A stretch of 9,487 nucleotides of DNA from the IMG/VR virus record IMGVR_UViG_2645728091_000021; one strand, 5' to 3'. The notes below the pieces were generated by a model. That model had not been told where the DNA came from and made no database searches. It saw only the letters and a program-made list of their open reading frames with translations. Within the stretch, counting starts at the first letter, position 1. The number at the start of each line of letters is the position of its first letter. Of this stretch, positions 1 through 9,487 are shown in pieces. Position numbers and translations under genes: made by a program. Source of the stretch: a virus (taxonomy: Duplodnaviria > Heunggongvirae > Uroviricota > Caudoviricetes).

Positions 1-1020
1 CTACTTACTGACCACAAGCGGCAAATCCAGTGTTGGTGTGATTTTGGTTTTACGATCGTAAATCAACACCTGATTTTCTGTTTTGTGTCCACTGAAAATT
101 TGTTTGTCGCGACTGCTGCCTTCGTAATCTGAAATCCCTTTGGCTTTTATGTCATGAAAATTACATCCGAACGGAACGCCTGCTTTTTGCTCGGCTGCGC
201 GTTTAGCCTGATTCCACCAGTTGTTCAGCGTTTTAGCGATGACTTTCCCGCCTTTGGTTGTGCTGATCACATACTCGCATGTGCCGGAAGATACATTTCG
301 GGCTAACTGGATCGCCGTACGTAATCGCGGAGACCATTCCTTGATTTGTTTGGTGCCTGTTTTGTTTTGCTCAATGTAGATCCCTTTATCCATAATATCC
401 TGCCATTTTAGCTCGAGAACATCACCGAGCCTTGCCGCACAAAGATAGGAAATCTCCATTGCAATGCGTAACTGTGGAATTGCTTCCGCGTATATCGCCG
501 CATACTGTTCATCGGTTATGTAAACAGTGCGGGCTTTAAGCGTGAATTTTCTGACGCCTTTGCATGGATTATTTTTCACATACCCACGCTCATATCCCCA
601 TCCGTATACGCGACTCAGGCTTGCCAGCTCATGGTTTGCCTGGGTCTTGCTCTCAAGTCCCCGCTTATCCATGAAAATTCTTACTTGCTCAATTTTTACA
701 TTATCAGCAAGCACTTTACCGAATACCGCCAGCAACGCCCTCTGATGTTGTCGATAATCTTTTTGGGTTCGGGGTGCCAGTTCTGTAAATGCAGGGGAGT
801 CCATAAACATGTGCCATAATTTAGCGACGGTCATTATGTTGTGGAGTTTTGCTTTTTCCAGTTCATAATTTTGCCAGACTTTAGCTACGCTGGTTTCCCG
901 TACTCTTCCGAGCCCTATAGTTCTTGTGCTTCCTTCGGGTTTCCACACGTAACTGTAACCATTCGATCTAACACGCGGTGGTAGTGCATTATCTTTTTTG
1001 TTTTTTCTTGGTCTTCCCAT
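1..1020 (-). CDS. int: Tyrosine recombinase / phage integrase, lambda Int family (339 aa)
   Basis: Complete minus-strand ORF; its stop codon is the complement of bases 1-3. By-eye similarity to the lambda Int catalytic core (ours AARLGDVLELKWQDIMDKGIYIEQNKTG vs recalled lambda TGQRVGDLCEMKWSDIVDGYLYVEQSKTG), plus a C-terminal SGH...LIYDR region consistent with the His/Tyr catalytic box. Start overlaps the upstream small ORF by 32 nt, the classic xis-int arrangement. Confidence 0.92.
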   Translation of the reverse strand: MGRPRKNKKDNALPPRVRSNGYSYVWKPEGSTRTIGLGRVRETSVAKVWQNYELEKAKLHNIMTVAKLWHMFMDSPAFTELAPRTQKDYRQHQRALLAVFGKVLADNVKIEQVRIFMDKRGLESKTQANHELASLSRVYGWGYERGYVKNNPCKGVRKFTLKARTVYITDEQYAAIYAEAIPQLRIAMEISYLCAARLGDVLELKWQDIMDKGIYIEQNKTGTKQIKEWSPRLRTAIQLARNVSSGTCEYVISTTKGGKVIAKTLNNWWNQAKRAAEQKAGVPFGCNFHDIKAKGISDYEGSSRDKQIFSGHKTENQVLIYDRKTKITPTLDLPLVVSK

Positions 1021-1306: not shown

Positions 1307-3766
1307 TTAAAAATCAACCGGATTCGGGATCAGTTTTTGCCAGATTGCTGAAACGTATTTTGCCTGGTGACGGGCGTCATCCAGTGCATTGTGGCGAACG
1401 CCTTCGAATGGAATAACGGTTCTAGCATCAAAGTCGATTGTTTTTCCCAGCTCAACGATTGTGCGTACATCGCGATCGTTGTGGTAGCGCCACGGGCAGG
1501 GGATTCCCTGTCGTTCGTATGAACGGCGTAAAATTACGTTGTCGAAACTGGTTCCGTTGCCCCAGACCTGAACAAAAAACTCACCGGAGTTTTCGTCGAT
1601 AAATTCCCGTAATTGCAACAGTGCATCATCTAACGGGATTTCATCAGCCAGAATGGCAGACTGCGCTTCGCGCGATTGCTTCAGCCACCACTTAACGGTG
1701 TCCCTGTCAATGACACCGCCAGCAGTATCCAGATCGATGGTCTTACTGAATTCTGGCCCAATATCTCCGGTTTGCGGATCGAAAAATATTGCACCTATTG
1801 AGATAACTGCAGCATCAGGATTTTTTCCCATGGTTTCCAGGTCGATCATCATATGAGTCCACATTCTGTTGCTGGTGGATATGTATTTATGATGACTGTT
1901 CACCGTAATTAGGGGATTTGCCGTCTCGCCAGTTTCATCACTGCTATTGCCATGCTGAGCGTCACCAGCGCTCTCCTTACGAGAATGCGCAGTGCTTTCC
2001 ATTTTCTCCGAATCTTTTTCAGCCAGATTTTCTTCATCGAATGTTTCCTGATATGTTGTGTTACCCATAACAGGCCCGCAGTCCGGACATTTTCCGCCGC
2101 CAGCCCGGCCGCAAGTATTGCAGCTTTTTTCAGTCTCCTGTTGTGCTGTTGGCTCTGACTGTTGCACTTCTGGCCCGTTTTGTTGCGCATCCGGGCTGTT
2201 TTGTTCCGCTTTCTGGTCGTTCTGTTCCATTTCTTGCTGATTCTGGTACACAGAATCGCGAGTCTGGATCCCCTCAACCCACTTCGGATCATTCGGGTCG
2301 CTAATTCCTTCAACAAATTCACCACGTGATGCAGCAAGCACTTTGTCTGCATCAGGCAGATTTTCTGTCTCCATTTTTTTATTTGTTTCGACCGTGTTAA
2401 CTTTTACCGGCTCTGGTTGTTCAGAGTTTTGTGCGGCATTGGTATTTTGCGGTAAGCCTGTGTATGTGCCATTTTTTCGGGCGACGTATTCTTCTTTGGT
2501 GATTTCAGTAGCCCCGGCAGCCAGAGCCTTATTCAGACCAGACAGTTTGTTTGCGCGACCGTATTTTTCGCTGTCCTTATCGGTAAAGAGGAAGTAGAAC
2601 GGTCCTTCACGCTCTACAGATGGTTCAGCTTCCAGTGCGCTTTCATTTTTTTGGGTGCCAGATACTTCTGTTTCCACTGCATCAGTTTGTGTTGCTGACG
2701 ACCGGAGAACATCAGCAGGACTCTGATCCGTTTCTTCATCTTCAAACACGCCTTTTGTCGTCAGGTATTCAGTGATGTATTTGTTCAGCGCCACGGGATC
2801 TTTGTGAATGTTGAGCGGACGTTCGCGAACAAGACCAAAAATCGTCTGACGGCTGTAGCGAAGCGCATCAGGCTGTTTGCGCATTGATGCGGAGATACGC
2901 TTCCAGTCTTCTCGGTCGTTGTCGATAACTTCATTTTTTGCCCAGCGATGGATACTGCCGTCAATGTTTCCGGCATCAATATCACCAGGCCAGAGGGCGC
3001 AGGCCAGTTCGCCATCCAGTGTTTTCCATGTCTGCTTGTATTCGCGATGAATGACAGCAGTTACGGAGTCAGTTTTTCCTGCAGAGTTTTCAGTGCCTTG
3101 CCGGTTGACTCTGGCGCGGGCAAGATCGACGACGGAATTATATGCTCCACCTTCTTTGCGCTCCTTTTCCATGCGTTTTTTACGTTCGAGAAAATACGCC
3201 TGAACGTCGGGCCATTTGGCTGTTGGTTTTAAATCACGTCTGGCATCGTTGATGTACTCAGTCTGACGCTCAGGATATATGGCGTTAATTTCTTTAGTCC
3301 TGATAATTGCTTCAGTGAGGTGTCCATCAAAAGTCGTCATCTCGTCATCGCCGAGAAGCCCGCTTGCATTGATGACCATATCCACGGTGATGTTTTCATG
3401 TGTACCGAACCTGACAAGGACAGCAGCCCGCTTGTCTTCAGATAACTGATTAAAGTTAACAGTTTCTGTATCCGGTTCAGGGTCGACCGGAACAAAGGAA
3501 GCCGACTCCTCATTCCAGCGGTTTTCCTGCATATATTCGGAATCCCAGGAATCGAGAGCAGGGCGGGCCATGCCGGGTTTATCCTCGCAGACAAGAAATT
3601 TATAAGCACAGTCCTGAGCTTCCGGGTATTGTTCCAGAAATAACCAGCTAAATTTGGCTCTTGCCCGGCGTTCGTCGCCTGCTTCAATGGCAGTGGCCAC
3701 AGGTTTAGCGCCTTCTGCTGTTGCCTGTTCGTCCGGAATGGCGGCGCAAATAAAGACTTTACTCAT
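1307..3766 (-). CDS. RecE-like (exodeoxyribonuclease VIII family) mosaic protein with C-terminal DEDDh (DnaQ-like) 3'-5' exonuclease domain (819 aa)
   Basis: Single long minus-strand ORF with a GAGG SD upstream of ATG 3766. The C-terminal ~181 aa (about 1310-1852) carry the three DEDDh motifs in order: MIDLET (Exo I), WGNGTSFD (Exo II), HNALDDARH (Exo III, H-x4-D). The centre has a Q/E-rich low-complexity linker and a C-x2-C-x7-C-x2-C zinc ribbon (CNTCGRAGGGKCPDCG, about 2075-2122), preceded by ...LAASRGEFVEGISDPNDPKWV..., which I recall from the central region of Rac RecE. Sits between the dicB cassette and xis-int, where lambdoid recombination genes normally lie. Confidence 0.8.
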   Translation of the reverse strand: MSKVFICAAIPDEQATAEGAKPVATAIEAGDERRARAKFSWLFLEQYPEAQDCAYKFLVCEDKPGMARPALDSWDSEYMQENRWNEESASFVPVDPEPDTETVNFNQLSEDKRAAVLVRFGTHENITVDMVINASGLLGDDEMTTFDGHLTEAIIRTKEINAIYPERQTEYINDARRDLKPTAKWPDVQAYFLERKKRMEKERKEGGAYNSVVDLARARVNRQGTENSAGKTDSVTAVIHREYKQTWKTLDGELACALWPGDIDAGNIDGSIHRWAKNEVIDNDREDWKRISASMRKQPDALRYSRQTIFGLVRERPLNIHKDPVALNKYITEYLTTKGVFEDEETDQSPADVLRSSATQTDAVETEVSGTQKNESALEAEPSVEREGPFYFLFTDKDSEKYGRANKLSGLNKALAAGATEITKEEYVARKNGTYTGLPQNTNAAQNSEQPEPVKVNTVETNKKMETENLPDADKVLAASRGEFVEGISDPNDPKWVEGIQTRDSVYQNQQEMEQNDQKAEQNSPDAQQNGPEVQQSEPTAQQETEKSCNTCGRAGGGKCPDCGPVMGNTTYQETFDEENLAEKDSEKMESTAHSRKESAGDAQHGNSSDETGETANPLITVNSHHKYISTSNRMWTHMMIDLETMGKNPDAAVISIGAIFFDPQTGDIGPEFSKTIDLDTAGGVIDRDTVKWWLKQSREAQSAILADEIPLDDALLQLREFIDENSGEFFVQVWGNGTSFDNVILRRSYERQGIPCPWRYHNDRDVRTIVELGKTIDFDARTVIPFEGVRHNALDDARHQAKYVSAIWQKLIPNPVDF

Positions 3767-4051: not shown

Positions 4052-4236
4052 TGCCTGCATCCTGTTTGCATCAGACGTAAACGGGCCAGCATCGAAACAA
4101 TGCATATTTTATTTAGCAGTTCCTGTTCGTGTTTTCTTTTATTAATGGCATCTTCAGTAAATATCTGATTGCTGATAGTGACACCAATTTCAAAACAACC
4201 TTCAGACGTATTAACGTTTGGTAATAACGTTTCCAT
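4048..4236 (-). CDS. dicB: Cell-division inhibitor DicB (62 aa)
   Basis: Product METLLPNVNTSEGCFEIGVTISNQIFTEDAINKRKHEQELLNKICIVSMLARLRLMQTGCRQ is near-identical to my recollection of E. coli DicB (62 aa). GAGGA SD lies 7 nt upstream of ATG 4236-4234. The 97-aa extended ORF from 4341 is not supported. Confidence 0.9.
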   Translation of the reverse strand: METLLPNVNTSEGCFEIGVTISNQIFTEDAINKRKHEQELLNKICIVSMLARLRLMQTGCRQ

Positions 4237-4405
4237 TATCGCGTCCTCAACAATGAATTTTGTGATGCGGTGCCTGGTGCCTCCAGGTGACGTTAACCAG
4301 TTAACAATTAACGCCGGATACAGAGAATCCACCCATAACACTGTTTTTGGTTTTAACTGTTCCGCGTGCGCTGAGCCGCATTCACCGCATCACAAAATTC
4401 ACTTT

Positions 4406-4446
4406 AAAAAGGGCGGACATCAGTTCATGGGCAAACAGATGCCGCC
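4406..4446 (-). terminator. Intrinsic terminator forming the DicF 3' end
   Basis: On the minus strand GGCGGCAUC...GAUG(U)CCGCC forms a ~9-bp stem with one bulge and a 16-nt loop, followed by UUUUU (plus 4406-4410 is AAAAA). Confidence 0.7.
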
Positions 4447-4461
4447 AAACGTCACCAGAAA
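4406..4461 (-). ncRNA. dicF: DicF small regulatory RNA (ftsZ-targeting sRNA)
   Basis: Minus-strand sequence UUUCUGGUGACGUUUGGCGGCAUCUGUUUGCCCAUGAACUGAUGUCCGCCCUUUUU. The 5' ~20 nt and the terminal GCCGCCCUUUUU match what I recall of E. coli K-12 DicF; the central part differs. It lies ~170 nt upstream of dicB, as in Qin. Confidence 0.85.
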
Positions 4462-5472: not shown

Positions 5473-5880
5473 TTATTTTATTGATTTGTTTTTACGTGCT
5501 TTAAGCATTTCTTCGAAGAGTTTATTGAAATTTTCTACTCTTGCGCGCATTTCAGACAGTAAGGCTTCCTGCTCGGAGGAGGGAAGAGCATCGAATAATT
5601 CGATCAATTCTTTGTGGCTGGGAGTTAACTCGGTTTCCACATGAAGTTCTTGTGCTGGCACTGGTGCCTTGTCTTCGTCACCAAACATTAGCCATGTAGG
5701 CGAGCACTTCAGCGCATCAGCTAAAGCAAATAACCGCTTCCCGACCGGTTGGGTTTCGTCTCTTTCCCATTGTGAAATTGTGACGTGAGCTACCCCAGCG
5801 AGGCGTGCAGCTTCTCGTTGTGTTAGGCGTAATTCTTTTCGTCGTGCCAGAACTCGCTGGCCTAGGGTTCTTGTATCCAT
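5473..5880 (-). CDS. dicA: DicA-like HTH (XRE family) prophage repressor (135 aa)
   Basis: Product carries an N-terminal HTH (LTQREAARLAGVAHVTISQWERDETQP). The C-terminal part (...LFALADALKCSPTWLMFGDEDK...LPSSEQEALLSEMRARVENFNKLFEEMLKAR...) closely matches my recollection of E. coli DicA, which is also 135 aa. Divergent from the cro-like gene. No SD; a TAGAAT -10 lies 9 nt upstream of the ATG, suggesting a near-leaderless mRNA. Confidence 0.9.
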   Translation of the reverse strand: MDTRTLGQRVLARRKELRLTQREAARLAGVAHVTISQWERDETQPVGKRLFALADALKCSPTWLMFGDEDKAPVPAQELHVETELTPSHKELIELFDALPSSEQEALLSEMRARVENFNKLFEEMLKARKNKSIK

Positions 5881-5957: not shown

Positions 5958-5960
5958 TTG

Positions 5961-6188
5961 ATGCTTAAAGTTGACGCAATTACTTTTTTTGGCAGCAAAA
6001 CAAAACTTGCCAATGCCGCAGGAGTGAAACTGGCAAGTGTTGCTGCATGGGGGGAACTGGTTCCTGAAGGTCGCGCGATGCGCCTGCAAGAGGCATCCGG
6101 CGGGGAACTTCAGTACGACCCCAAAGTTTATGACGAATATCGTAAGGCAAAGCGGGCGGGGCGGTTGAACAATGAAAATCACCCCTGA
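5961..6188 (+). CDS. dicC: DicC-like Cro-type regulator (75 aa)
   Basis: Product MLKVDAITFFGSKTKLANAAGVKLASVAAWGELVPEGRAMRLQEASGGELQYDPKVYDEYRKAKRAGRLNNENHP matches my recollection of DicC. GAGGGGG SD 5 nt upstream of ATG 5961; the TTG at 5958 in the ORF track is less likely. Divergent from the dicA-like gene. Confidence 0.85.
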   Translation: MLKVDAITFFGSKTKLANAAGVKLASVAAWGELVPEGRAMRLQEASGGELQYDPKVYDEYRKAKRAGRLNNENHP

Positions 6189-6693
6189 ACAGGTTTGTGA
6201 GGCTCTGGATGCCTGGGTATGCCGACCAGGAATGACACAGGAGCAGGCGACGATATTAATCACGGAAGCATTCTGGGCTCTGAAAGAACGCCCGAACATC
6301 GATGTTCAACGCGTCACGTTTAATGATGGCGAGGTTGATCAACGGGCGTTGGGCGTTAACCGGGTGAAGATATTCGAACGCTGGAAAGCTATCGACACCA
6401 GGGATAAGCGGGAAAAATTCACGGCGCTGATTCCGGCAATTATGGAGGCTATCCGGATCAGCGATTTCAGGTTGTATTGTGAAATTACTGACGGAAAAAG
6501 CATTACGTACATGATCGCCGGGTTAAACAAAGAATATGGTGATGTGGTGGAGTCCGGGCTGCTTTTTGCGGATCCATCTGTTGTGGAACGTGAGACTGAC
6601 GAGCTTATAGAAAAAGCTATTGCTTTCAAGCATGCGTATCGTCAGCAATACCAACAAAAAGCTGGATGGAATTATGAGCCTTCTTTTTGCTGA
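6172..6693 (+). CDS. YdaT-like / CII-position regulatory protein (173 aa)
   Basis: ORF overlaps the dicC-like 3' end by 17 nt and the replication initiator start by 20 nt, i.e. the CII position of a lambdoid right operon. The segment ...KIFERWKAIDTRDKREKFTALIPAIMEAI... resembles what I recall of Rac YdaT; the family call is tentative. Confidence 0.6.
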   Translation: MKITPEQVCEALDAWVCRPGMTQEQATILITEAFWALKERPNIDVQRVTFNDGEVDQRALGVNRVKIFERWKAIDTRDKREKFTALIPAIMEAIRISDFRLYCEITDGKSITYMIAGLNKEYGDVVESGLLFADPSVVERETDELIEKAIAFKHAYRQQYQQKAGWNYEPSFC

Positions 6694-7639
6694 ACGCCCA
6701 CTGGTTATAAACACACAGCTTGCGATGAAGATTGGCTTAAATGAAGCCATTGTGTTGCAGCAGTTGCATTACTGGTTGAGAGATACCAGTTCCGGTATGG
6801 AATGTGACGGGGTTCGCTGGATTTATAACACAACAGAACAATGGCTGGAACAGTTCCCGTTCTGGTCAGAGTCAACGTTAAAACGCGCATTTGCAAGTCT
6901 GAAAACGCTGGGGCTTTTGCGTTGCGAAAAGCTCAACAAATCAAAGCGTGATATGACTAATTTTTACACGATTAATTACGAGAGTGAGCTTTTAGATGGT
7001 GGCAAAGTGAGCGAATCCATCAGGTCAAAATGCGCCGCTCCATCGGGTCAAAATGACACGATGGAAGAGGTCAAAATGGCACGATCCATTGGTTCAAAAC
7101 GACCCAATGTCATCGGGTCAAAATGGCCTGATGATCTTACAGAGAATACAACAGAGATTACTACAGAGAATAAAAACACTTCTCGTCCGGAAGCTTCGCA
7201 ACCGGACCCGCAGACGGCTGAACAGGATTTTTTAACCCGACACCCTGACGCGGTTGTGTTCAGTGCGAAAAAACGCCAGTGGGGAAGTCAGGAAGATTTG
7301 GCGTGCGCACAGTGGATCTGGGGACGAATCGTGAGTCTTTACGAGCAGGCTGCCAGCGATGATGGCGAGATCACGCGACCGAAAGAACCAAACTGGACCG
7401 CATGGGCCAATGACGTGCGCACAATGCGGATGCTGGATGGCAGAAGCCACAGACAAATTTGCGAAATGTTTGGTCGGGTACAGCGAGATCCATTCTGGGT
7501 AAAAAACATCATGAGCCCGTCAAAGCTTCGCGAAAAATGGGACGACCTGGTCATCCGCCTGGGGCGTTCACCTGTACAGTGTTGTGTGAATCATATTTCT
7601 GAACCGGATACCGAAATTCCGCCTGGTTTCAGGGGATAA
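6674..7639 (+). CDS. Replication initiator (O-like origin-binding N-terminal domain, DnaT-like C-terminal domain), 321 aa from ATG 6674
   Basis: N-terminal domain MSLLFAERPLVINTQLAMKIGLNEAIVLQQLHYWL...LKRAFASLKTLGLLRCEKLN looks winged-helix-like. An iteron array lies inside the gene (see repeat feature), as for lambda O. The C-terminus ...SEPDTEIPPGFRG matches my recollection of the E. coli DnaT C-terminal tail (...EPDSQIPPGFRG). Alternative starts at 6620 (TTG) and 6632 (ATG) are possible. Confidence 0.8.
   Translation: MSLLFAERPLVINTQLAMKIGLNEAIVLQQLHYWLRDTSSGMECDGVRWIYNTTEQWLEQFPFWSESTLKRAFASLKTLGLLRCEKLNKSKRDMTNFYTINYESELLDGGKVSESIRSKCAAPSGQNDTMEEVKMARSIGSKRPNVIGSKWPDDLTENTTEITTENKNTSRPEASQPDPQTAEQDFLTRHPDAVVFSAKKRQWGSQEDLACAQWIWGRIVSLYEQAASDDGEITRPKEPNWTAWANDVRTMRMLDGRSHRQICEMFGRVQRDPFWVKNIMSPSKLREKWDDLVIRLGRSPVQCCVNHISEPDTEIPPGFRG
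7023..7125. repeat. Replication origin iterons: five copies of GGTCAAAATG-type core at ~23-bp spacing, followed by an A-rich ACAGAGA triple repeat (7139-7172)
   Basis: Cores at 7023-7032, 7046-7055, 7069-7078, 7091-7100 (variant GGTTCAAAAC) and 7116-7125, each within a longer repeated unit (cat-cGGGTCAAAATG-...). Immediately downstream, ACAGAGA recurs at 7139, 7151 and 7163 in an A-rich tract, resembling the AT-rich unwinding region next to the lambda ori iterons. Confidence 0.75.
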
Positions 7640-7679
7640 GTGGTGATTTTAGGGCATAAAGTAATGTTCAGGAGGACTT

Positions 7680-8087
7680 ATGGCAAAAGTATTTACACAG
7701 GAAGAGCGGGAAAAAATTAAAGGACAGGTGGTGGAACTCGTGCGCCAGAGCGGTCGTGAGACGTTACGGCAACTGGAAGCTAAAACAGGTGCGACAAGAT
7801 ATCTGATGAGCGTTCTTGCCAGAGAGCTGGTTGCCAGTGGTGATGTATATCACTCTGGCTATGGGGTGTTCCCGTCAGAACGGGCTCGTAAGGACTGGCA
7901 AAACGCCCGCAAAAAACTCTCGAGGGCAAAGGTGAAGAAACCTGTTGTGGTTGATCCGGGCCTTATCTGGACATTACCCGACGGAGAAATACGTCGCTAC
8001 GACAGGCGTATGAACATAATCTGTCGCGAGTGCCGGAAGAGCGAAGTTATGCAGCGTGTATTGGCGTTCTATCAGGGATATGCCTAG
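7680..8087 (+). CDS. Hypothetical protein (135 aa), backbone-like GC, possibly DNA-binding
   Basis: Strong AGGAGG SD 5 nt upstream of ATG 7680. Basic C-terminal half (KKLSRAKVKKP, RRYDRRMNIICRECRK). Sits where a helicase loader (P/DnaC-like) would normally follow the initiator, but is far too small for an AAA+ loader. No motif recognised. Confidence 0.65.
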   Translation: MAKVFTQEEREKIKGQVVELVRQSGRETLRQLEAKTGATRYLMSVLARELVASGDVYHSGYGVFPSERARKDWQNARKKLSRAKVKKPVVVDPGLIWTLPDGEIRRYDRRMNIICRECRKSEVMQRVLAFYQGYA

Positions 8088-8133
8088 AATTGTCACAGGT
8101 AATGAAATTAAAGAGTATTGGTTCGGATATGAA

Positions 8134-8163
8134 TTGACATTTTCGCGGCACAGAGCTAAAAAT
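8134..8163 (+). promoter_or_regulatory. Candidate sigma70 promoter in the AT-rich spacer upstream of the SIR2-like gene
   Basis: -35 TTGACA (8134-8139), 17/18-bp spacer, -10 TAAAAAT (8157-8163). A transcript from here would carry a ~290-nt leader before ATG 8456. Confidence 0.4.
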
Positions 8164-8455
8164 AGCCTACTTGTTGGTTTTGTGTGAAAAGCAGACATTT
8201 TGAGGCTCAGGATTTGTTATCAAATAAGACCAATACTTATCTATATTAATACACATTAAATACTGTGCAATACATTATTGCATTTTATTAGATAAGCGAT
8301 ATTTAGGGAAAAGAAAAGTCATAGAAAACAGGCCGCTATTTGTTGTTGGATTTTATAGGCTATATCTAGATTATCTTGCCACTGCGGTCTCTGTTTACCT
8401 AACAGCTTGGGCTTCTTTGCATGCAAGTTTGTAATAACAAGTGTAATCAAACGGA

Positions 8456-9487
8456 ATGTCTATTAATCCTAAACTTAAGCGTATCGCGCGACGCTATCCA
8501 GCGTTATTCCAATATGAGTCCCCCTATATGGCAAGAAAATTAATAATATTCGGCAACGGTCTCGGTATGGCTTTAGATCCTGCTCACTTCTCCTTAGACA
8601 GAGCGTTGGAAGAAATTTGGCATCGCCCCAATTTTTTAAAAGATATCCACAAGCAACTTATCGAGCGTTGTCTTCAGCGGCAAGGTCCACCAGAAGGAGA
8701 ACATGAGTTGGATACCCTTCACCAGGCTGTCACATATTGTAAAGCTCTTGCTCAAATTGGAGAGGGGAACGTGCATTGGCTTACTGAAGATGGACTAAAC
8801 TTCCCCAAAATTACCGCCACTTATATTCACAAAGTTGCAACCAGGTTGCATAATTACGATAAAGGTTTGCCACAAAGATTCGAAAATGCGCTTGTGGAGT
8901 TTGTAAAGAACACACACTCACATATCGCGACATTAAACTATGACAAATTATTATACAATTCATTCATAGATAATGATATATTCAACGGGTATGATGGGGT
9001 TTTAGTTGATGGGATGCTAAGCCACGGATTTTCCTCTGCAGCGCTCGAACGGAAATACAATCGTAGGTTTGGTTATTATTTGCACTTGCATGGTTCACCA
9101 CTATTTATTAATCAGCATGAAAATGTTTTAAAACTTTCACGCTCACAACTTACTCTTGACATAGATGAACCTAGTGAGCATATAGTGTTAACTCATATAA
9201 AAAGAAAACCGTCAGTTATAGCAGCATCTAATGTTCTTTCTACGTACTGGGATTATTTGCAGTTTGCATTATTTGAATCAGAAGAAATAATATTGTTTGG
9301 TTACTCTGGTCTCGATATTCACCTTAACCTGCTTATTCGACCTTACCTAACCTCTAAGCCTTTAAGAGTAATTGAGTGGAGCGGTGCTGGTGAACAAAAC
9401 GCTCGTGAGATATATTGGAAAAACCAGTTGAGACGGGAAGTTACTGTAATTAGGTTGGATAACATCACTGATTTTATTGATTGGTAG
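8456..9487 (+). CDS. SIR2-like (SIR2_2-type) domain protein, candidate NAD+-consuming anti-phage effector (343 aa)
   Basis: Complete ORF; its stop TAG is the last three bases of the window. Ordered motifs: glycine-rich loop IIFGNGLG (res 31-37), TLNYD (159-163, putative catalytic Asn161), HLHGS (210-214, putative catalytic His212), FGYSGLD (281-287). These parallel the ThsA SIR2 motifs I recall (FAGAGLS, TTNYD, KMHGD, FVGFSFTD). The gene and its 368-bp upstream spacer are visibly AT-rich compared with the phage backbone. SD is weak; M25 (8528) is an alternative start. Confidence 0.75.
   Translation: MSINPKLKRIARRYPALFQYESPYMARKLIIFGNGLGMALDPAHFSLDRALEEIWHRPNFLKDIHKQLIERCLQRQGPPEGEHELDTLHQAVTYCKALAQIGEGNVHWLTEDGLNFPKITATYIHKVATRLHNYDKGLPQRFENALVEFVKNTHSHIATLNYDKLLYNSFIDNDIFNGYDGVLVDGMLSHGFSSAALERKYNRRFGYYLHLHGSPLFINQHENVLKLSRSQLTLDIDEPSEHIVLTHIKRKPSVIAASNVLSTYWDYLQFALFESEEIILFGYSGLDIHLNLLIRPYLTSKPLRVIEWSGAGEQNAREIYWKNQLRREVTVIRLDNITDFIDW

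Follow-up and report, generated by a model that had tools for sequence, protein, structure and literature searches.

A stand-alone SIR2-family gene in the early-region cargo slot of Qin/Rac-like Escherichia coli prophages as a candidate single-gene NADase

The SIR2 gene and its boundaries

We analysed a 9,487-nucleotide stretch of viral DNA (IMG/VR record IMGVR_UViG_2645728091_000021, Caudoviricetes; hereafter the window), which corresponds to the left arm of a Qin/Rac-like lambdoid prophage. Our subject is the SIR2-family gene at its right end, which lies behind a DUF977 gene and a stretch of AT-rich DNA. The gene, its motifs and the sequence ahead of it are arranged as follows, where motif positions are given in the numbering of the 319-amino-acid (aa) protein and, in brackets, as the first residue in that of a longer, 343-aa open reading frame (ORF):

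7680-8087, plus strand: DUF977 gene (Pfam DUF977, E value 1.7e-29), the left anchor of the cargo slot and thus context rather than part of the cassette
8088-8199, plus strand: flank of the slot, common to some prophages with other cargo (from homology comparison)
8134-8163, plus strand: promoter-like sequence TTGACA-18-AAAAAT, with 10/12 consensus matches
8200-8527, plus strand: cassette-specific AT-rich non-coding leader, which moves with the gene (from allele comparison)
8266-8282: inverted repeat TGCAATA-N3-TATTGCA in the leader
8417-8426: perfect palindrome TTGCATGCAA, inside a well-conserved block at about 8380-8455
8528-9487, plus strand: SIR2-family gene, 319 aa plus TAG stop (WP_000101550-type)
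8552-8566, plus strand: GNGLG, the glycine-rich loop binding nicotinamide adenine dinucleotide (NAD), aa 9-13 (aa 33)
8930-8944, plus strand: TLNYD, with catalytic Asn N137 and D139 (aa 159)
9083-9097, plus strand: HLHGS, with catalytic His H188 (aa 210)
9296-9316, plus strand: FGYSGLD, part of a GYSGxDxHLN block (aa 281)

The initial annotation described a 343-aa ORF at 8456-9487 that ran off the end of the window. This ORF, including a 24-codon extension, does exist on the plus strand, but its TAG stop occupies 9485-9487, the final three bases, and the ORF is complete within the window. The conserved protein is the 319-aa product starting at ATG 8528 (M25 of the longer ORF). This is also how PGAP annotates it (319 aa, WP_000101550.1, "SIR2 family protein"), and the domain call itself is therefore not new. 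Homologs of 319-323 aa from Pantoea, Serratia, Citrobacter, Klebsiella, Aeromonas, Vibrio, Pseudoalteromonas, Chromobacterium and other genera cover 93% of the 343-aa query, and the equivalent start in other genera is preceded by clear Shine-Dalgarno sequences. Compared with a second E. coli allele of 86% identity, substitutions at the three codon positions number 7/5/4 in the extension and 23/17/60 in the body, and the ratio of non-synonymous to synonymous substitution rates (dN/dS) is 0.49 in the extension and 0.14 in the body. In the AlphaFold model, the confidence score (pLDDT) of residues 1-24 is 54-58, against 86 overall. The stretch at 8456-8527 is thus probably untranslated, and an E. 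coli-specific longer isoform is, strictly speaking, conceivable, as the extension lacks a stop codon in both E. coli alleles. With the 319-aa start, the key residues first named as N161 and H212, which are present as described, become N137 and H188, and the AT-rich spacer (GC content 0.34) lengthens from 368 to 440 bp.

A single-domain SIR2 protein closest in fold to HerA-associated Sir2

The four SIR2 motifs stand in the order originally reported. In an alignment of 58 family members (30-65% identity, 319-aa numbering), G9, N10, G11, Y138, D139, D161, L187, H188, G189, K227, G258, D263 and H265 are invariant, and G13, N137, T135, H186, H218, Y259, G261 and N267 are conserved in at least 90% of members. 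An Asn/His dyad has been described in Sir2-HerA (PMC11514289). Taken together, the invariant catalytic residues, the low dN/dS of 0.14 and the 46/46 intact copies among E. coli genomes point to an active enzyme using this dyad. The protein has only two cysteines (C48 and C71), no CxxC motif and no zinc-binding module.

Pfam finds SIR2_2 (PF13289) and no other domain, scoring 26.1-26.3 bits where the gathering threshold is 24.5 (E value 1e-5); homologs score 23-30 bits on the same profile. PF13289 belongs to the SIRim side of the SIR2 superfamily, which holds all known antiphage members. The AlphaFold2 model is confident and predicts a single Rossmann-type SIR2 domain filling the protein, with an all-helical cap inserted between strands 1 and 2, that is, between the GNG loop and the TLNYD strand. 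The earlier description of a protein without a fused sensor domain thus agrees with both the Pfam result and the single-domain model. Searching the PDB by sequence, whether with the protein alone or with a profile built from 41 sequences, returned nothing relevant; fold comparison alone succeeded, giving these scores:

PsSIR2 (8w9l), 274 residues aligned: 19.2
8yhx: 18.2
Nezha Sir2 (8j4u): 17.2
ThsA: 14.2
KomC: 13.9
Classical sirtuins: 11-13
Avs5: 11.7
Human FAM118B: 10.7

The SIR2_2 match above the cut-off and the fold comparison both bear out the initial call of a SIR2-like protein, and we are highly confident that it is a SIR2-fold NAD-utilising enzyme. Going by the predicted model, the most fitting description is an orphan Sir2 that lacks a partner and belongs structurally to the HerA-associated class.

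Databases of defence systems and phage proteins place it less precisely. PADLOC returned the pAgo-associated SIR2 profile (Aga_SIR2, E value 3.8e-6, limited to the SIR2 core), PDC-S21 (E value 8e-6) and a generic SIR2 profile (E value 6e-5). The PDC-S21 match is weak and partial, at about 23 bits over residues 26-230 and profile positions 18-210 of 336. No confident match to the family was found in PADLOC-DB 2.0, neither an NCBIfam model nor a PHROGs family was found for the protein, and the searchable literature yielded no paper mentioning WP_000101550 or PDC-S21.

A rare occupant of a common cargo slot

Among 5,426 complete E. coli genomes, 46 contain the 1.4-kb region, in one copy each, always chromosomal and annotated intact in every case. 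Thirty of these genomes carry a copy at least 99% identical (O55:H7, O111:H2, porcine enterotoxigenic E. coli (ETEC), O139 and O141), while 16 assorted commensal and environmental strains carry the allele of about 86% identity. An identical protein is also encoded by Escherichia albertii NBRC 107761. The gene always lies in lambdoid prophages in the order DUF977 - SIR2 - hokD, and these prophages occupy four integration sites: yccA, mtfA/tRNA-Ser, rspB and ompW. The prophage at ompW is Stx2e-converting. It carries the SIR2 gene in porcine ETEC and edema-disease strains (locus L011, from ETEC1748, NZ_CP122719.1, 10441-19419), where an IS481-family transposase lies between the SIR2 gene and hokD.

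In E. coli, 4,001 genomes contain the DUF977 gene, at 5,809 places altogether, so the SIR2 gene is a rare occupant of a common slot. Other cargo in the sampled loci (L012-L017) includes an ABC-three-component (ABC-3C) system with DUF2326, QueH, an alpha/beta hydrolase on the opposite strand and small nin-type ORFs. The DUF977-to-hokD interval of Qin/Rac-like prophages appears to be a cargo hotspot, and other candidate defence genes may be present among its roughly 5,800 occurrences.

Homology with prophages carrying other cargo stops at 8063-8199 and resumes at about 9516-9682, which is 30-195 bp past the window end. These breakpoints place the SIR2 cassette at about 8200 to about 9515, a unit of about 1.3 kb comprising the gene and some 330 bp of its own leader. 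On the left, homology to such prophages continues across DUF977; that to the locus with ABC-3C cargo (L012) reaches 8152, and that to the locus with QueH cargo (L014) reaches 8199. GC content is 0.49 at 5958-8087, drops to 0.34 across the spacer (8088-8455) and is 0.39 within the ORF, matching the AT-rich block after balanced genes that was first noticed. The proposal of horizontally acquired cargo in a prophage variable region is likewise upheld by the alternative cargo in the slot, the four attachment sites, the breakpoints and this GC contrast. With its variable presence, atypical composition and occurrence in unrelated elements, the SIR2 gene is a prophage moron, or accessory cargo.

The two E. 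coli alleles share 77-87% identity in the leader, where frame-breaking indels of 3 and 7 nt exclude small ORFs as genes; a 43-aa minus-strand ORF (8319-8450) was rejected on account of the 7-nt indel in the sister allele. The near-consensus promoter proposed for the spacer, TTGACA-18-AAAAAT, is indeed the top-scoring promoter-like site of the region. However, the 86% allele keeps its -35 element and not its -10, the site falls in flank DNA common to prophages with other cargo, and the AT-rich stretch as a whole holds nine promoter-like sites against 4.9 +/- 2.1 in shuffled sequence, only about two standard deviations above. No Rfam family matched in the spacer, no terminator-like site was found upstream of the SIR2 gene on the plus strand, and no cross-genus regulatory motif was found upstream of the homologs, the TTGCATGCAA palindrome being E. 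coli-specific. A further promoter-like sequence, TTGGCG-N17/18-TAGAAT, occurs at the 3' end of DUF977 (window 8061-8090) and again upstream of hokD (locus L001, 13568-13596), and thus borders the cargo slot on both sides.

Remaining features of the window

The rest of the window has the layout of a lambdoid left arm and early region. From the ORF list and Pfam, together with two Rfam matches that both fall below threshold, it contains:

1-1020, minus strand: integrase
1307-3766, minus strand: 819-aa exonuclease
Between the exonuclease and repressor genes: DUF1482 gene and dicB region
4204-4413, minus strand: STnc100-like match (Rfam, sub-threshold)
4411-4460, minus strand: DicF match (Rfam, sub-threshold)
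5473-5880, minus strand: cI-like repressor
5958-6188, plus strand: Cro
After cro, in the same orientation: YdaT-like gene
6620-7639, plus strand: replication-type protein

In the 819-aa protein, the Rv2179c-like 3'-5' exoribonuclease domain is confined to the C-terminus (residues 637-809); the roughly 630 residues ahead of it have no Pfam match and include a long, acidic, Gln/Asn-rich low-complexity stretch. The divergent DicF small RNA scores 43.5 bits with the full Rfam model, against a gathering score of 48 (E value 9e-08), and was missed by the default Rfam scan. The STnc100-like match adjoining it scores 37.7 bits against 47.

A small family spread across many phyla

With the family profile as query, an exhaustive HMMER search retrieved 358 proteins from 1.84 billion cluster representatives, 197 of them at an E value of 1e-30 or lower. 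Full-length representatives are 310-370 aa long and match the profile end to end. Judged from these sequences, the family is small, sharply bounded and always single-domain. Identity stays at 60-80% across bacterial orders and classes, and the GC content of the gene is 0.36-0.43 in every host, even where the flanks are at 0.56-0.62. Members are common among free-living bacteria of marine and soil habitats. A tblastn search of the INPHARED phage genomes gave no match to the protein, and BFVD held no structural match.

Two Vibrio homologs, P0042 (506 aa, V. parahaemolyticus) and P0044 (541 aa, V. aestuarianus), carry an in-frame N-terminal extension of about 190-220 aa. These extensions share homology (30% identity over 122 aa, E value 8.5e-12), have no Pfam match and are absent from the other 117 loci; they may represent a lineage-specific regulatory or sensor domain. 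The first 222 residues of P0044, used as query in a protein search, gave no matches; this search also missed P0044 itself and hence carries little weight.

No conserved partner gene

To look for partner genes, we clustered the ORFs within 4.5 kb of the homolog at 71 loci with a full-length family member, drawn from Gamma-, Alpha- and Betaproteobacteria, Chloroflexota, Nitrospinota, Verrucomicrobiota and others. The commonest neighbour family is present at 7 of the 71 loci. No herA gene (FtsK/HerA-type ATPase) was found beside the SIR2 gene at these loci or among the top neighbour families, and no Toll/interleukin-1 receptor (TIR) or prokaryotic Argonaute (pAgo) gene was found near it. In the prophages, the gene is followed by hokD, about 370 bp away, and then by genes that differ between prophages. 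It had been suggested that the SIR2 gene might be either the first gene of a multi-gene system, with its partner just past 9487, or a minimal single-gene system. The variable downstream genes and the lack of a recurrent neighbour speak against the former and favour the latter, and we consider it very likely that the gene is a single-gene unit.

Two recurrent ORFs were considered as partners and rejected. A 551-aa ORF found upstream in Rhodobacteraceae encodes a housekeeping ABC-F ATPase and reflects synteny, while a cluster of 124-165-aa ORFs near the Pseudomonas copies is found at only six loci.

The settings of individual homologs are diverse. The Aeromonas homolog is a lone insertion after sucABCD, and the Klebsiella homolog lies amid metabolic genes. 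The Serratia homolog adjoins a 680-aa uncharacterised protein and a SoFic-type protein, the Pseudoalteromonas homolog adjoins HEPN and SNIPE/T5orf172 genes, and the Chromobacterium homolog lies in a small island with a Bro-N protein. Relatives in other prophages occupy positions between the genes for portal and scaffold, next to a DNA methyltransferase that follows the tail fibre gene, or ahead of an HNH/endolysin/terminase block. Among the 139 immediate neighbours, a minority are mobile or defence genes, namely integrases (4), MvaT silencers (3), Dsr1, ThsA-like, PDC-S31 and a type I restriction enzyme.

Two local arrangements were also seen. In Pseudoalteromonas (L020, 3553-5913) and a marine metagenome (L021, 649-3009), the SIR2 homolog is directly preceded, across an 88-bp gap, by four co-oriented ORFs (82, 172, 172 and 290 aa). 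This set is kept in the two independent contigs, and in L020 it adjoins the HEPN_LA2681 and SNIPE/T5orf172 genes; it could be a separate system or a local operon. At three loci, an immediate neighbour is a nicotinate phosphoribosyltransferase gene of NAD salvage; going by shared ORF coordinates, these are probably L037, L039 and L070 (Pseudomonas viridiflava/syringae group), with the gene directly upstream of the SIR2 homolog on the same strand. Since these species are closely related, this probably reflects one event, although the tie to NAD metabolism is curious.

Comparison with known SIR2 systems

The closest structural relatives are the Sir2 proteins of Sir2-HerA and Nezha (GAO_19; 8w9l, 8yhx, 8j4u, 8sub), to whose structural class the window protein belongs. 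Identity to them is 13-15%, with no HMMER match even with the family profile. The window protein is also shorter (319 aa against 360-400 aa) and has no herA beside its gene, whereas HerA-associated Sir2 is inactive without HerA (PMC11514289). From their text, the Sir2 homolog of Vassallo et al. appears to be part of PD-T7-2, a two-gene system that includes a HerA-like protein. Defence by a single Sir2 protein has a precedent in sole-Sir2 (bioRxiv 10.1101/2024.12.27.630466), a CRISPR-supervised stand-alone Sir2 with in vitro NADase activity, a homolog of which protects E. coli against T2 and T4. Like the window protein, it is a single-gene system; by its description, which is the basis of this comparison, it differs in its size (about 440 aa), distinct N-terminal substructure and DSR2-like C-terminal Sir2.

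Other SIR2 defence proteins carry parts that the window protein lacks. ThsA of type I Thoeris has a SLOG domain and a partner, ThsB (TIR), whereas the window protein has no SLOG or Macro domain. KomC (Kongming) requires KomA/B and Avs5 has a STAND module; the window protein has neither a fused sensor nor a partner. DSR1 and DSR2 are about 1,000 aa long with a C-terminal sensor (a HEAT-like C-terminal domain), against 319 aa and no Dsr match in PADLOC. SPARSA combines Sir2-APAZ with a short pAgo, and here there is no APAZ and no pAgo gene nearby. Outside defence, the classical sirtuin deacylases (CobB/Sir2Tm) have a zinc-binding Cys4 small domain that is missing here, and human FAM118B/FAM118A (SIRal/SIRanc-type) are vertebrate proteins to which the structural match is much weaker.

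DUF4917 (PF16263) is an adjacent sequence family, likewise of stand-alone proteins of about 300 aa. Close homologs are borderline on its profile (27.9-29.2 bits against 28, over about 265 of 311 profile positions), while the window protein has no match even at E values up to 10; the family is thus a neighbour of DUF4917 rather than a member. The one DUF4917 protein studied, Campylobacter jejuni SliP (CJJ81176_0779), was reported to be a secreted lysine deacetylase acting on host histones (PMC10421069). The sliP gene is co-operonic with the R subunit gene of a type I restriction system, and its presence varies among isolates (PMC10421069), a genomic context that would fit an anti-phage role too.

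Proposed function

With moderate confidence, we propose that the protein is an autonomous, autoinhibited NAD+-hydrolysing abortive-infection protein, spread on a mobile cassette without a linked partner. It would be made in the lysogen in an autoinhibited state and triggered by infection to hydrolyse NAD+; the loss of NAD+ would then starve the infected cell and abort the infection, with the protein acting alone, without a genetically linked partner. We infer NADase activity, anti-phage role, autoinhibition and trigger by analogy. NAD+ hydrolysis and abortive infection are suggested because every characterised member of the SIRim branch acts in this way, autoinhibition because a constitutive NADase would be lethal and related Sir2 proteins are autoinhibited, and direct triggering because there is no sensor domain or partner. 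The trigger could be a phage component binding directly, perhaps at the helical cap, or induced oligomerisation or filamentation, which is known in ThsA, Avs5, KomC and FAM118B. The defence genes beside some homologs (SoFic, HEPN, SNIPE, Dsr1, ThsA-like and the type I restriction enzyme) are consistent with a defence role. A narrower version, which we regard as tentative and rather unlikely, is a minimal immune NADase, a HerA-class Sir2 that dispenses with HerA or any other sensor or partner and senses infection itself, either through a conserved phage component bound by the helical cap or through self-assembly driven by concentration or a metabolite.

Several observations weigh against the proposed abortive-infection role. 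The Pfam margin is small (26.1 against 24.5 bits) and the PADLOC matches are weak. The 139 immediate neighbours are mostly housekeeping genes, so that defence-island enrichment is modest, and the distant homologs in Rhodobacteraceae sit in stable synteny, which is atypical for defence genes. In the searchable literature, leaving aside Brenes & Laub 2025, we found no experimental work on the protein or its family. The remaining points come from the relatives and the locus itself: the nearest structures are HerA-dependent Sir2 proteins that are autoinhibited when alone, the only characterised DUF4917 protein is reported to be a secreted deacetylase, and the gene, which is co-oriented with the early-right operon and has no plus-strand terminator ahead of it, could be expressed at prophage induction rather than in the lysogen.

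An orphan resembling HerA-dependent Sir2 may need an unlinked activator, such as a HerA-like or other ATPase of the host or a prophage, or a signalling nucleotide made elsewhere, in which case its apparent independence would be deceptive, and the next nearest folds, KomC and ThsA, are switched on by small-molecule signals. We nevertheless think such a dependent NADase effector unlikely, as no neighbour is conserved at the 71 loci across many phyla, the lone cassette enters very different genomes and prophages, which is hard to square with a specific unlinked partner, and there is no SLOG, Macro or other ligand-sensing domain. A protein-modifying sirtuin (a deacylase or ADP-ribosyltransferase), including a SliP-like effector secreted by enteropathogenic (EPEC), enterohaemorrhagic (EHEC) or ETEC lineages, would fit the DUF4917 neighbourhood and the pathogenic hosts. 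This seems quite unlikely, given a fold closer to the NADases, the missing zinc module and the lack of a DUF4917 match in the window protein. The family is also common among free-living bacteria, marine and soil ones alike, and among commensal and environmental E. coli, the gene lies in the early region rather than in the effector loci near the tail genes, and sliP itself shares an operon with a restriction subunit.

The gene might instead serve the phage in its lytic cycle, being transcribed with the early-right genes on induction and altering host NAD metabolism or countering host defence. It is co-oriented with cro, the YdaT-like gene, the replication genes and DUF977, and the sole strong promoter-like site belongs to the common flank. 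Yet lone chromosomal copies exist in Aeromonas and Klebsiella without phage genes, relatives in other prophages sit inside late or structural modules, the gene has its own conserved 330-bp leader, and its absence from INPHARED and BFVD means that no known phage requires it, all of which makes a lytic role improbable. That the gene is an inert or decaying passenger, as its rarity (46/5,426 genomes) and marginal hidden Markov model score might suggest, is very improbable indeed; the dN/dS of 0.14, the catalytic residues invariant across 58 members, the 60-80% identity across orders and classes and the intact state of all E. coli copies argue for selection on a working protein.

Implications

To our knowledge, SIR2 NADases are among the commonest bacterial immune effectors, and nearly all characterised ones need a fused sensor or a partner gene. 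The family described here, of single-domain proteins without a partner, is carried by a 1.3-kb cassette into prophages, an Stx2e-converting phage among them, and into the chromosomes of many phyla. It therefore offers a compact system for studying how a bare SIR2 domain is silenced and triggered. If the protein does sense infection itself, its unusually strong conservation, at 60-80% identity, would reflect the constraints of sensing and of an oligomer interface within 319 residues. If a defence role is confirmed, the gene would be a new defence marker for the early-region cargo slot of Qin/Rac-like E. coli prophages. It would also bear on how DUF4917 is interpreted, as its one studied member, SliP, is called a virulence factor. 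Dependence on an unlinked factor, or a role outside defence, would be equally informative about orphan SIR2 genes.

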